NCBI RefSeq assembly: GCF_024502345.1
Contig: NZ_JALDNN010000001.1
Reading direction: 5' to 3' (one strand)
Source: Escherichia coli
GTDB lineage: Bacteria; Pseudomonadota; Gammaproteobacteria; Enterobacterales; Enterobacteriaceae
Length of the DNA: 64,000 nucleotides
Position numbers and translations under genes: made by a program. Position 1 is the first letter of the stretch. The number at the start of each line of letters is the position of its first letter. Positions 38,835-43,018 of the stretch are shown in pieces. A model generated the notes under the pieces. That model ran no database searches and was not told the DNA's origin. It saw only the letters and a list, made by a program, of their open reading frames with translations.

Positions 38835-40577
38835 ATGATAAAACCGACGTTTTTACGCCGGGTGGCCATTGCTGCTCTGCTCTCAGGAAGTTGTTTTAGC
38901 GCCGCCGCCGCGCCTCCTGCGCCGCCCGTCTCGTATGGTGTGGAGGAAGATGTCTTCCACCCGGTACGCGCGAAACAGGGAATGGTAGCGTCTGTGGACG
39001 CCACTGCCACTCAGGTGGGGGTGGATATTCTCAAGGAGGGCGGGAATGCCGTTGATGCCGCCGTGGCGGTGGGCTACGCGCTGGCGGTAACGCATCCGCA
39101 GGCAGGGAATCTGGGCGGTGGTGGTTTTATGTTAATCCGCTCGAAAAATGGCAATACCACGGCTATCGATTTCCGCGAAATGGCACCCGCCAAAGCGACC
39201 CGCGATATGTTCCTCGATGATCAGGGCAACCCGGACAGCAAAAAATCACTCACTTCGCATCTGGCTTCCGGCACACCGGGTACGGTAGCAGGTTTCTCGC
39301 TGGCGCTGGATAAATACGGCACCATGCCGCTGAACAAAGTCGTGCAGCCCGCGTTTAAACTGGCACGCGATGGTTTTATCGTTAACGACGCGCTGGCTGA
39401 CGATCTCAAAACCTACGGTAGCGAAGTGTTGCCGAATCACGAAAACAGTAAAGCTATCTTCTGGAAAGAGGGCGAGCCGCTGAAAAAGGGCGACACGCTG
39501 GTGCAGGCGAACCTGGCAAAGAGCCTGGAGATGATTGCTGAAAACGGCCCGGACGAATTCTATAAAGGCACGATTGCGGAACAGATCGCCCAGGAGATGC
39601 AGAAAAACGGTGGCTTGATCACTAAAGAAGATTTAGCGGCCTATAAAGCGGTCGAACGCACTCCGATAAGCGGCGATTATCGCGGGTATCAGGTTTACTC
39701 CATGCCACCGCCATCCTCCGGCGGGATCCATATCGTACAAATCCTCAATATTCTGGAAAACTTCGATATGAAGAAATACGGCTTTGGCAGCGCCGATGCG
39801 ATGCAAATCATGGCAGAAGCGGAGAAACACGCCTACGCCGACCGCTCGGAATATCTTGGCGACCCGGATTTTGTCAAAGTCCCGTGGCAGGCACTGACCA
39901 ATAAAGCCTATGCCAAATCCATTGCCGATCAAATTGATATCAACAAAGCGAAGCCGTCCAGTGAGATTCGCCCTGGCAAGCTTGCGCCTTATGAGAGTAA
40001 TCAAACTACCCATTACTCAGTGGTGGATAAAGATGGTAACGCGGTGGCGGTGACCTATACGCTGAACACCACCTTCGGTACGGGCATTGTCGCGGGCGAG
40101 AGCGGTATTCTGCTTAATAATCAGATGGATGATTTCTCCGCTAAACCGGGCGTACCGAACGTTTACGGGCTGGTGGGCGGTGATGCCAACGCCGTCGGGC
40201 CGAATAAACGTCCGCTGTCGTCAATGTCACCAACGATTGTGGTGAAAGACGGTAAAACCTGGCTGGTCACCGGTAGCCCTGGCGGGAGCCGGATCATCAC
40301 TACAGTGCTGCAAATGGTGGTGAATAGCATCGATTATGGCATGAACGTCGCCGAAGCGACCAATGCGCCGCGTTTCCACCATCAGTGGTTGCCGGACGAG
40401 CTGCGTGTCGAAAAAGGGTTTAGCCCGGATACGCTCAAGCTGCTGGAAGCAAAAGGTCAGAAAGTGGCGCTGAAAGAGGCGATGGGCAGTACACAAAGCA
40501 TTATGGTTGGGCCGGACGGTGAGTTGTACGGCGCATCCGACCCGCGCTCGGTGGATGATTTAACGGCGGGGTACTAA
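38835..40577 (+). CDS. ggt: Gamma-glutamyltranspeptidase Ggt
   Basis: Track ORF starts at 38808; ATG at 38835 (MIKPTFLRR...) gives 580 aa; autoprocessing-site Thr in the TTHYSVVD region. Confidence 0.95.
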   Translation: MIKPTFLRRVAIAALLSGSCFSAAAAPPAPPVSYGVEEDVFHPVRAKQGMVASVDATATQVGVDILKEGGNAVDAAVAVGYALAVTHPQAGNLGGGGFMLIRSKNGNTTAIDFREMAPAKATRDMFLDDQGNPDSKKSLTSHLASGTPGTVAGFSLALDKYGTMPLNKVVQPAFKLARDGFIVNDALADDLKTYGSEVLPNHENSKAIFWKEGEPLKKGDTLVQANLAKSLEMIAENGPDEFYKGTIAEQIAQEMQKNGGLITKEDLAAYKAVERTPISGDYRGYQVYSMPPPSSGGIHIVQILNILENFDMKKYGFGSADAMQIMAEAEKHAYADRSEYLGDPDFVKVPWQALTNKAYAKSIADQIDINKAKPSSEIRPGKLAPYESNQTTHYSVVDKDGNAVAVTYTLNTTFGTGIVAGESGILLNNQMDDFSAKPGVPNVYGLVGGDANAVGPNKRPLSSMSPTIVVKDGKTWLVTGSPGGSRIITTVLQMVVNSIDYGMNVAEATNAPRFHHQWLPDELRVEKGFSPDTLKLLEAKGQKVALKEAMGSTQSIMVGPDGELYGASDPRSVDDLTAGY

Positions 40578-40614: not shown

Positions 40615-40899
40615 TCAGGGCAAGCCGAAGGTAGCCTTTTTTATTTCGTAATCCTGTAGATATTCTTCCAGCGGCTTTGCCGTTCCCAGAGAATGAATTT
40701 CACCACTGTCTTTATCAATAATAAAAGGTGCGTTACCAGCTAAGCGCGCGGCCTCATCTCCAGTTTCGAGAAATTCTCGTGCTTCGAAACAGAAATACCA
40801 GCCCTGGCTAAAGCGTCCATGTAGAGTAATGACGACCGGGAGATCTGCATCATCAAGGTAATGGTTCGCTTTCGCGAATGCGTCGTGATAAGTAATCAT
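40615..40899 (-). CDS. yrhB: YrhB, small stable protein; putative immunity-like protein of the yhhZ cluster
   Basis: 94 aa; matches recalled K-12 YrhB. Confidence 0.85.
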   Translation of the reverse strand: MITYHDAFAKANHYLDDADLPVVITLHGRFSQGWYFCFEAREFLETGDEAARLAGNAPFIIDKDSGEIHSLGTAKPLEEYLQDYEIKKATFGLP

Positions 40900-41098
40900 A
40901 ATTATAATAAATATTATTGTTGAGTGTTATATTATTATTCCTGTGTGATACATTGAGCAAAGACGCGTTCATCTTCGTCAAAGATATTATTAAATGCTGG
41001 TTTTGAAAAAAGTTCATCGGATAAGATATAGTCACGAAATAAGTATCTGCTAATATTTTATGATTTCTTTTTCAGAACGTCGAACGGGATTTTCTTAT

Positions 41099-41254
41099 TT
41101 AAGATATCAGAATCTTATGATTCGGGTAAAATTCTAAATAAATCAACATGTCATTAAAATCATCATAGCCATTAGCTATTTCGGCTAAAATAGAGACTAC
41201 ATGTCTTCGGTCCATCTCACTTAAGGAGTGTAGTTCCGTTGTAAGTTTTTCCAT
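41099..41254 (-). CDS. Small 51-aa ORF between yrhB and yrhA (possibly the K-12 small protein YrhD)
   Basis: Not in the ORF track (below the length cut-off); ATG...TAA translating to MEKLTTELHSLSEMDRRHVVSILAEIANGYDDFNDMLIYLEFYPNHKILIS; same strand as yrhA/yrhB. Confidence 0.4.
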   Translation of the reverse strand: MEKLTTELHSLSEMDRRHVVSILAEIANGYDDFNDMLIYLEFYPNHKILIS

Positions 41255-41348
41255 AGCTTGCACTGCTAAATTTCGAACAAGGAATTTTCTGCTGGTAATC
41301 TCTAAAAAGATGGCATGGTTTACAATGATTTTTGTTTCCTTTTGATTA

Positions 41349-41843
41349 TTATGAACAACTGTCCATGATTTCGTTTAAGAATGAAGAGAAATCACTAAAC
41401 GAACTGAATATATTTTCTGTGCCAATATTATCTCTAATTTCAAAAAAGTTACTTTTAATGTCATAAGTAAATATTGAAATGCTATCATCCCCGATCACTA
41501 ACCGTTCTTGTAGATCAGGGTTTATGAAATCATCATTATTTCTATAAAATTCATTTACGGCAAAAAGGTTTTTAACTGAAGGTTCTGGAATCGAGAGGCT
41601 AAATAATCGTAATCCATTAACTTCGAATCCATCCATTGCTCTTAAAAAAGTAAGATAATCAGGTTGATTCTTAAAAAGAATACTAACTTCATTACATAAC
41701 TTCTCCAGGCAATTAGTTGAATTAGAATTAAATTCTATTTGGATTATACTTTCAATAAATGATTCCTTGAGCGGAGCTTCAAATGGATAGTCTAAATCAT
41801 TCATCATTTTTATTAATTTATTTATTTGGGTTTTAGTCATCAT
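41349..41843 (-). CDS. yrhA: YrhA, putative immunity protein for the YhhZ nuclease domain; intact here
   Basis: 164 aa; start overlaps the yhhZ stop (ATGA); no IS1 interruption in this window. Confidence 0.75.
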   Translation of the reverse strand: MMTKTQINKLIKMMNDLDYPFEAPLKESFIESIIQIEFNSNSTNCLEKLCNEVSILFKNQPDYLTFLRAMDGFEVNGLRLFSLSIPEPSVKNLFAVNEFYRNNDDFINPDLQERLVIGDDSISIFTYDIKSNFFEIRDNIGTENIFSSFSDFSSFLNEIMDSCS

Positions 41844-43018
41844 TTTGTGTGGTCCATAATATTTTTCATGGGAGGATAAATTGAGCCAGATGGAATGGCC
41901 CAGGGAGTGATTTTGCTTTCACCTACTAATATTCCCTTAGCTATTCGTGATTGCATGTTAGTAAAAACTTTATGATATGGTTCGTTTTCGATTAATACTA
42001 AATTTTCGAAATCATTAGTACCACCATCATCTAGAGATAGTTTATGGTGAACATTATAATTTAGAGGAGCATTGCCCTTTCTCATTCTTAAAAGGTCTTC
42101 GGCGTTGAATCTTCCAGATGCTTCGGAGGTTTTTGCAAGTTTGATAAGAAAATTTTTTCTTACAGTTTTATTAAACTCCTTTCGTAAGTTAGCTAAGTCT
42201 TTTGAAGGTCTCTTAATGTATATTATTTCTATTATGTCTATACCATCAAGAAGTTTTTGTTGACCTCTAAGTTTGCCTAAGTAACTATTTATTTCTGTAT
42301 ATGTATCAACATTAGAACGCTTTGTTAAAAGAATAGATGCTGTTGCTATCGCTATGCCCGCTGTTTTTTCATTTAGTATTTGATCATAGCCTTTTATTGC
42401 ATCTCCACCCAGTTTTTCCGCAGTATCTCTGAATCCTTCAATGTTCCCATTGTATACGCCACCAGCAGCAAGTAGCCTGCCAATAGCTTTGCTGTTTAAC
42501 GTTTTGAAACGATTATTTGTTTGGTTTTTTGAATTTGGTAAAAACAAACGGTTATAATTTTCAGGGAGTGCCAAATAGCTGAACTCGGTATTTGCGATAA
42601 GATGTTGACAGAGGATAAATTCATAACTAATAGTTATTGTTTCTGTATCCAGTTGGTTTTCAATGATCTGGTGATGAATAGCCGATAAAAAAGCGCCTCT
42701 TAGTTGTATATAATAATACTTTTCCAATCTACCAAATCTATTTATTCGATAGAAGTCAAATCCCATAAATAATTGTTCATTATTGTTAATGGAATTAATA
42801 AATAATGGAGTGCTTTTATCAATTAATTTACAAAATGTTATACCATGGAACTGTGAACCAAGCCCCGTATTATTAATATTATTTAAGAGTGAGAATGTAA
42901 ATATTTCATCCTCATGCCCGCTCTGCCAACGATTACCTGTAGACTCAGAAGTCCCACAACCTGCGGAGATGCTTCCTTGTTGTTCTCCCGTTACTGTCAG
43001 GTAAACAATATTACTCAT
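41840..43018 (-). CDS. yhhZ: YhhZ, Hcp-like N-terminal domain fused to a C-terminal HNH-type nuclease domain
   Basis: 392 aa; N-terminal VYLTVTGEQQGSI... Hcp-like pattern; C-terminal NYNVHHKLSLDDGGTNDFENLVLIENEPYH HNH motif; low-GC sequence. Confidence 0.85.
   Translation of the reverse strand: MSNIVYLTVTGEQQGSISAGCGTSESTGNRWQSGHEDEIFTFSLLNNINNTGLGSQFHGITFCKLIDKSTPLFINSINNNEQLFMGFDFYRINRFGRLEKYYYIQLRGAFLSAIHHQIIENQLDTETITISYEFILCQHLIANTEFSYLALPENYNRLFLPNSKNQTNNRFKTLNSKAIGRLLAAGGVYNGNIEGFRDTAEKLGGDAIKGYDQILNEKTAGIAIATASILLTKRSNVDTYTEINSYLGKLRGQQKLLDGIDIIEIIYIKRPSKDLANLRKEFNKTVRKNFLIKLAKTSEASGRFNAEDLLRMRKGNAPLNYNVHHKLSLDDGGTNDFENLVLIENEPYHKVFTNMQSRIAKGILVGESKITPWAIPSGSIYPPMKNIMDHTK

Follow-up and report, generated by a model that had tools for sequence, protein, structure and literature searches.

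Does the small frame annotated as yrhD in Escherichia coli encode a protein in its own right, or is it what is left of something longer? The question arises in a 449-bp stretch (positions 40900-41348) between yrhB and yrhA, within a 64-kb window of the E. coli chromosome around ggt, the window being the whole stretch of DNA that was analysed. A preliminary description of this DNA had noted a minus-strand open reading frame (ORF) of 51 codons, co-oriented with yrhA and yrhB, and had proposed it as a candidate yrhD. Both observations were borne out: the ORF occupies 41099-41254, with its ATG at 41254 and its TAA at 41101-41099, and the stretch is 100% identical over all 449 bp to K-12, where the annotation is yrhD (b4612, UniProt P58037, WP_001307436.1). 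In the K-12 annotation these same 51 amino acids are entered as an independent protein whose function is unknown, whereas here they prove to be the C-terminal portion of a longer unit recognized by homology. From comparison of sequences, we hold it to be about 75% probable that the 51-codon yrhD is no complete gene but the remnant of a decaying orphan immunity gene of about 84 codons. The gene was known before; the new elements are where it came from and an uncurated toxin–immunity family.

The longer unit behind yrhD

The yrhD frame remains open upstream of its annotated start as far as 41374, or 91 codons from stop to stop. A phmmer search of this stop-to-stop translation against 1.84 billion representative proteins recovered proteins of 79–83 amino acids and 37–39% identity from beyond E. 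coli, and these matches cover the codons that precede the annotated ATG. Specifically, 84 codons on the minus strand (41353 down to 41102; 41099-41353 with the stop) align from first residue to last with the proteins found, giving an end-to-end alignment with a family of 80–87 amino acids in which FLE and E35 are invariant. Profile searching enlarged this set to about 50 full-length members (77–97 amino acids) from Citrobacter, Iodobacter, Sphingomonas, Labrys and metagenomes, with FLEF, D31 and E38 as invariants and a C-terminal motif FV..LP..LG(L/I) (numbering of member P0033). When a family hidden Markov model (HMM) was built without the E. coli sequences, the open frame at 41102-41374 (minus strand) was its sole match in the 64 kb, at 54 bits (E 7e-16). 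Both halves of the frame were recognized separately, the upstream 40 amino acids at 20.4 bits and the annotated 51 at 22.5 bits; shuffling either half 1000 times gave at most 7.3 bits, and none of the shuffles (0/1000) reached the real scores.

The AlphaFold2 model of the family (predicted local distance difference test score, pLDDT, 95) has four helices, at residues 3–22, 30–44, 49–65 and 69–80. The 33 in-frame codons that lie 5' of the annotated ATG (41255-41353, minus strand) are homologous to helix 1, which carries the FLEF motif, and to the first half of helix 2. The annotated methionine of yrhD aligns with M37 of P0033, in an internal column occupied by Met or Leu halfway along helix 2, and the 51-codon ORF comprises the second half of that helix plus helices 3 and 4. 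In the column that holds the start methionine of the family, the E. coli unit has a CAT codon (41351-41353), which overlaps the yrhA stop (41349-41351). The 33 upstream codons include neither ATG nor TTG, and their sole canonical start is a GTG at 41263, three codons before the annotated ATG. By homology, the unit begins at the yrhA stop codon, and yrhD makes up only its 3' portion.

The length of the ORF plays no part in this argument. Among 2000 dinucleotide-preserving shuffles of 40900-41380, an ATG-initiated ORF of at least 51 codons arose in 400 (20%), and an open frame of at least 91 codons in 58 (2.9%). Length was dropped as evidence for yrhD because shuffles reach it at chance frequency; the feature is real because of homology. 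That 51 codons are so readily reached counts against a genuine 51-residue protein, as does the observation that these 51 amino acids, used as a lone query, recover only E. coli sequences and truncated variants.

The family has no curated counterpart in the resources searched. Neither Pfam nor NCBIfam, the Imm*, SUKH/SMI1 and colicin immunity models included, holds a model for yrhD, for the 84-residue frame or for the family members, which sets the YrhD family apart from the curated immunity families; a sequence search of the PDB found no relative, and Foldseek with the family model gave no significant PDB match (best E 0.63). No orthologue with an intact start in another species was found in a genome-contig search with the 84-residue query. 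The one locus returned (L022, CABHOW010000200.1) belongs to a metagenome-assembled genome labelled 'uncultured Flavihumibacter sp.'; its 4-kb contig is 99.7% identical to the E. coli yhhZ–yrhD region, and is probably E. coli contamination of the Flavihumibacter bin. Two apparent homologues at 76% identity in Logan assemblies (P0013 and P0015) were discarded, since they differ only by C-to-T changes (L to F, H to Y, R to W, A to V, P to L and S to F) and thus derive from assemblies of bisulfite reads.

A toxin domain beside the family

To what kind of gene, then, did the longer unit belong? We examined the context of family members at 12 independent loci. At five (Citrobacter, L010; Labrys, L015; and the metagenomes L016, L024 and L026) the member is paired with a toxin domain: the upstream gene overlaps the start of the member or stops about 10 nt or less away from it, and these upstream genes (CdiA proteins, an orphan fragment of CdiA and the C-terminus of an Rhs protein) share one C-terminal domain of about 125 amino acids at 59–62% identity. 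Five further loci lie within CdiA orphan arrays, namely those of Iodobacter, of a metagenome with an Endonuclease_NS CdiA, of a metagenome in which the member adjoins a SUKH-type immunity gene, and of Rahnella and Pantoea megaplasmids. At the remaining two, the member stands alone among housekeeping genes. Because five of the 12 loci follow one toxin domain and five more sit in CdiA arrays, we regard the family members as very probably immunity proteins, cognate to the partner toxin domain.

Two of the arrays hold minor observations of their own. In a metagenomic CdiA array (L023, 4274-4690), a SUKH_5/SMI1_KNR4 immunity gene directly follows the YrhD-family gene, an order that recalls the yrhA–yrhD adjacency of E. 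coli in reverse. On the Rahnella aquatilis plasmid CP042359.1 (L027, 686-985), PLSDB/RGI report an 'OXA-678 beta-lactamase, identity 100%' on a 279–300-nt ORF at the end of cdiA; this looks like a spurious resistance call, a CdiI-type gene being likelier.

Most homologues of the toxin domain are labelled fragments of 'filamentous hemagglutinin', or carry PT-HINT or PT-TG pre-toxin modules; they come from Citrobacter, Enterobacter, Photorhabdus, Xanthomonas oryzae, Achromobacter, Ralstonia and one unclassified Enterobacteriaceae isolate. The domain has the motifs WVDEN, YNDSAxGARSN, RFDGVDG, DRK, RQS and GRWEVP. Residues F53-D54-G55 and D63-R64-K65 are invariant or nearly so, and lie on adjacent predicted strands with a conserved helix after them, as the corresponding residues do in PD-(D/E)xK nucleases. 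The domain has no Pfam model (Tox-REase included) and no PDB relative by sequence. With Foldseek, its predicted structure matched chains of TseT–TsiT complexes (PDB 7dym and 9oz0; E 0.035, probability 0.99, TMq 0.63, the other TMq 0.50) and, weakly, BstYI; the best PDB matches have weak E-values (0.035–0.5), and the results do not state whether the TseT–TsiT chains that were matched are effector or immunity protein. TseT has been described as a PD-(D/E)xK effector (PMC9635880). The partner domain has its best fold match in TseT/TsiT of Pseudomonas aeruginosa, a type VI secretion system (T6SS) pair, and carries an invariant FDG...DRK arrangement of the kind found in D...(D/E)xK nucleases, but shares no sequence similarity with the pair (HMMER against PDB sequences, Pfam). 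By its motifs and predicted fold, the partner toxin domain looks like a PD-(D/E)xK nuclease. This domain and its four-helix partner together appear to constitute a toxin–immunity family with no representative in Pfam, NCBIfam or the PDB. As an uncurated pair (a PD-(D/E)xK-like domain of about 125 residues and a partner of about 83), carried across CdiA, Rhs, PT-HINT and PT-TG proteins in Proteobacteria, it is a candidate entry for catalogues of polymorphic toxins.

The HMM of this toxin domain matched nothing anywhere in the 64-kb window, and for that reason we regard the E. coli copy as an orphan. The ancestor would have been a four-helix protein of 80–87 amino acids, its gene lying directly after, or overlapping, the toxin C-terminus of CdiA, Rhs or a related polymorphic toxin. 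Such a protein would bind the partner toxin in the producing cell and neutralize it, the toxin itself being some 125 amino acids long with motifs and a predicted fold like those of a PD-(D/E)xK nuclease, whose activity it may share. The E. coli copy lies in the AT-rich yhhZ island with yrhA and yrhB on either side and no toxin of its own, a placement that fits a polyimmunity or orphan-immunity locus. It has lost its start codon, with CAT in the methionine column abutting the yrhA stop, and the annotated ATG is a conserved internal residue of helix 2 in a frame that evolves within E. coli like non-coding DNA.

The class to which we take this locus to belong is that of orphan immunity and polyimmunity loci, such as the orphan cdiA-CT/cdiI modules of contact-dependent inhibition (CDI), the orphan arrays of Rhs and heterogeneous immunity clusters. 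The likeness lies in a small gene, within a toxin and immunity island, that lacks a toxin of its own. However, where maintained orphan immunity genes are concerned, E. coli yrhD differs in having no start codon and in evolving in a neutral manner, as a fossil would. The preliminary description had thought of an immunity-like protein of the yhhZ cluster. As to ancestry, the first part of this idea is upheld by a family found beside CdiA and Rhs toxin domains, although the complete 51-residue unit that it assumed is not; the second is right about location, in the yhhZ–yrhA–yrhB island, and wrong if taken as immunity to YhhZ, for the partner of the family is a different toxin domain.

Variation within E. 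coli and the competing readings

Is the E. coli copy still maintained as a protein? The stretch is present in 3808 of 5426 complete E. coli genomes, chromosomal in every case, and was compared across nine E. coli lineages. All nine have CAT at the start-methionine column of the family, and in all lineages compared the 33 upstream codons are open and in frame. The preliminary description made conservation of the reading frame a test of its proposal, and the frame is not conserved. In a lineage whose DNA is 92–93% identical to the window, a TTA-to-TAA change stops the frame at codon 56 of 84, and ATA or GTG replaces the annotated ATG; in another, at 95–96% identity, a different nonsense codon stands at codon 72. 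Both lineages are flagged as pseudogene by the Prokaryotic Genome Annotation Pipeline (PGAP). A third lineage, at 97.5% identity, keeps the 51-codon ORF intact, its methionine column still being CAT. Over the same stretch, 480 genomes fall below 95% identity, as against a single genome for yhhZ plus yrhA.

The kind of change matters as much as its amount. Across the 84-codon frame, synonymous and non-synonymous codon differences from the window number 2:15 and 1:6–8, and within the 51 annotated codons there are no synonymous differences against 4–8 non-synonymous ones; the corresponding ratios are 82:4 in ggt, 22:2 in yhhY and 10:5 in yrhB. Variable sites at codon positions 1, 2 and 3 are distributed 14/9/8 in the 84-codon frame, in comparison with 5/4/12 in yrhB, 5/5/14 in yrhA, 7/6/40 in yhhY and 8/2/80 in ggt. 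Positions conserved throughout, or almost throughout, the rest of the family have been replaced in the E. coli copy (F19I, D28N and G82L); among the near-invariant positions as numbered in P0033, it keeps F19, L20, E21, E38 and L44 and has I at F22, N at D31, Y at F73 and L at G82. The neighbours of yrhD differ in both respects: yrhA and yrhB have a third-position excess and frames that are intact in six divergent genomes of the two interrupted lineages, yrhA of EC1 excepted, and yrhD has neither. In five of those six genomes yrhA, yrhB and yhhZ are all intact; in EC1, yrhA and yhhZ are frameshifted. Judged by its substitutions, the yrhD frame of E. coli is no longer constrained as a protein, and we infer that this copy is without function. 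In all likelihood the annotation of a 51-residue gene is an artefact, cut from a longer gene in decay.

Several observations weigh against reading yrhD as a functionless remnant of an immunity gene. The sample of nine lineages is small. Most genomes with the ORF have it uninterrupted (2785 at ≥99% identity, and the 97.5% lineage), which says little about selection because the ≥99%-identity clade is highly uniform. The immunity role of the family is drawn from gene neighbourhood and from nothing else. An absent Shine-Dalgarno sequence is in itself weak evidence, yrhB being conserved although it has none either. Genomic SELEX (systematic evolution of ligands by exponential enrichment) with RpoD places an RNA-polymerase site upstream of yrhD (PMC3946193). 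Finally, an AAGGA at 41337-41341 (minus strand) is followed, 7 nt on, by in-frame ATC (41327-41329) and ATT (41324-41326) codons; at -5.6 kcal/mol it has the strongest anti-Shine-Dalgarno pairing of the 449 bp, similar to that of yhhZ, yhhY and yhhX, and this is, speculatively, the only plausible non-canonical start site for a near-full-length product of about 75 residues, perhaps made at a low level.

Such a site leads to the alternative that survives best, which is that K-12-type strains still make a working orphan immunity protein of about 75–84 amino acids against a PD-(D/E)xK-like CdiA or Rhs toxin of Enterobacterales, either from the ATC/ATT codons behind AAGGA or through frameshifting or translational coupling at the overlapping yrhA stop. 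The openness of the 33 upstream codons in every lineage would suit it, and so would the strength of the AAGGA pairing. The occurrence of the toxin domain in Citrobacter, Enterobacter, Photorhabdus and unclassified Enterobacteriaceae would supply plausible competitors. In one assembly, moreover, yrhA and yrhD are fused in frame (P0024, 246 amino acids), the two frames being one nucleotide apart at the yrhA stop. However, AUC and AUU are very poor initiators in E. coli, the 84 codons show no third-position excess, nonsense mutations interrupt them in two lineages, conserved family positions have been replaced, and an open frame of 91 codons is only marginally unusual among shuffles. We consider this alternative unlikely as a whole, and somewhat more doubtful still in its narrower form of an ATC- or ATT-started product of about 75 residues acting in K-12-type E. 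coli against an uncharacterized PD-(D/E)xK-like CdiA/Rhs toxin. If true, that form would make yrhD a defence gene with non-AUG initiation.

A genuine small protein of 51 residues, translated from the annotated ATG and acting within the yhhZ cluster in an immunity-like or regulatory way, seems to us distinctly improbable. In its favour, the ORF is annotated in K-12 and most E. coli, some 2800 genomes have it intact, and it combines co-orientation with yrhA and yrhB with the RpoD site upstream. Yet the translation signal that might be hoped for is missing: no Shine-Dalgarno sequence precedes the ATG (anti-Shine-Dalgarno energy +0.1 kcal/mol, in comparison with -5.3 to -6.4 kcal/mol at yhhZ, yhhY, yhhX and ggt). 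That ATG falls inside helix 2, so that the product would lack helix 1 and with it the invariant FLEF and D motifs, and the replacement of the ATG by ATA or GTG in one lineage, two independent nonsense codons and the want of any synonymous difference in 51 codons all tell against such a protein.

That the stretch matters only as non-coding DNA (a yrhB promoter or leader, an H-NS-bound AT-rich spacer or an IS1 target) with an incidental ORF is the least probable reading of all: a guanine-plus-cytosine (GC) content of 28–33%, listed H-NS and RpoD/RpoS SELEX sites and IS1 insertions or IS1-flanked deletions in three strains would agree with it, but it is compatible with a relic and hence no true alternative, the frame's homology to a protein family is unambiguous, and there is no RNA structure, no Rfam match above threshold and no repeat. 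An RNA role for the stretch was rejected in its own right, Rfam yielding only sub-threshold snoRNA noise, with a fold z of -0.32 and no internal terminator.

The hexamer pair given for yrhD by RpoD genomic SELEX (PMC3946193) corresponds to a promoter-like TAGAGA-18-TATATT at 41407-41436 (minus strand), within the 3' end of yrhA. Such promoter-like matches are no commoner in this region than chance predicts (6 versus 5.6 expected). H-NS binding upstream of yrhD is listed in the same source (PMC3946193), and RpoS genomic SELEX gave a weak site between yrhD and yrhB (PMC5493296). A search of the literature on yrhD and b4612 and of ribosome-profiling supplements found no expression or function data. 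A paper on yhhZ-yrhAB and methionine-to-cysteine conversion (PMC3309015) concerns same-named genes of Bacillus subtilis and was not used.

If yrhD is indeed the remnant of a longer immunity gene, pseudogene or relic would be a more fitting label for it than small protein, and a long-standing K-12 'y-gene' gains an origin. The corrected gene model, in which the homologous unit begins at the yrhA stop, would also spare effort in small-protein screens. The locus would then illustrate how a polyimmunity island decays, in that toxin-less yrhD rots with yrhA and yrhB intact in most genomes examined.

The yhhZ island and its insertion sequences

The genes of this part of the window are ordered ugpQ (+), yhhA (-), ggt (+), yrhB (-), the 449-bp stretch, yrhA (-), yhhZ (-), yhhY (-) and yhhX (+), with the 3' end of ggt at 40577. 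The island covers 2.4 kb at 28–34% GC between flanks of 50–55%. At its head stands yhhZ (41840-43018, minus strand), which joins an Hcp to a C-terminal HNH/His-Me nuclease domain; it matches Pfam T6SS_HCP (1.6e-11) and TIGR03344 (3.8e-34), with weak HNH and colicin-DNase matches, and has been reported as an Hcp–HNH nuclease fusion (PMC5714182). It is an orphan T6SS polymorphic toxin. Directly after it comes yrhA (41349-41843, minus strand; 164 amino acids; NCBIfam NF038335, YrhA family, 1.5e-36), intact in the window and the presumed immunity gene of yhhZ. The island is closed by yrhB (40615-40899, minus strand), which encodes an Imm35-family immunity protein (Pfam Imm35, 4e-23). In layout the island corresponds to an orphan T6SS toxin followed by a polyimmunity cluster. 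The YrhA family and the Imm35 protein YrhB share island, orientation and general role class with yrhD, but are unrelated to it in sequence.

In two respects yrhB stands apart: it has 46% GC as against 28–34% for yhhZ, yrhA, the yrhD relic and the spacers, and it is found in 4068 genomes as against about 3810 for the remaining island. The island may be a mosaic, with yrhB perhaps of separate origin. Codon differences in yhhZ between lineages stand at 3:16, 11:21 and 13:20 (synonymous to non-synonymous), a pattern that suggests diversifying or relaxed selection on yhhZ in strains which, like K-12, have no T6SS.

An AT-rich spacer of 199 bp (40900-41098, minus strand; 28% GC) separates the yrhD stop from the start of yrhB and is presumably the upstream region of yrhB. 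It gave no ORF homology, repeat or RNA-structure signal, with no protein-homology search having been aimed at the spacer itself.

The preliminary description had placed the IS1 of K-12 within the stretch. K-12 in fact holds all 449 bp uninterrupted, and its insertion sequence, IS1E, lies about 100 bp outside, where it splits yrhA at the equivalent of window positions 41451-41462; its location within the uncharacterized yrhA gene has also been reported (PMC12428005). Other strains have been struck nearer to yrhD. Strain F11 carries an IS1 inside the interval at 41306-41314, between yrhA and the annotated ATG, and in strain PKF8 an IS1-flanked deletion runs from 40971 through yhhZ, removing yrhD, yrhA, yhhZ and part of yhhY. 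The AT-rich island has thus been struck by IS1 independently in at least three strains (K-12, F11 and PKF8; loci L001, L002 and L005).

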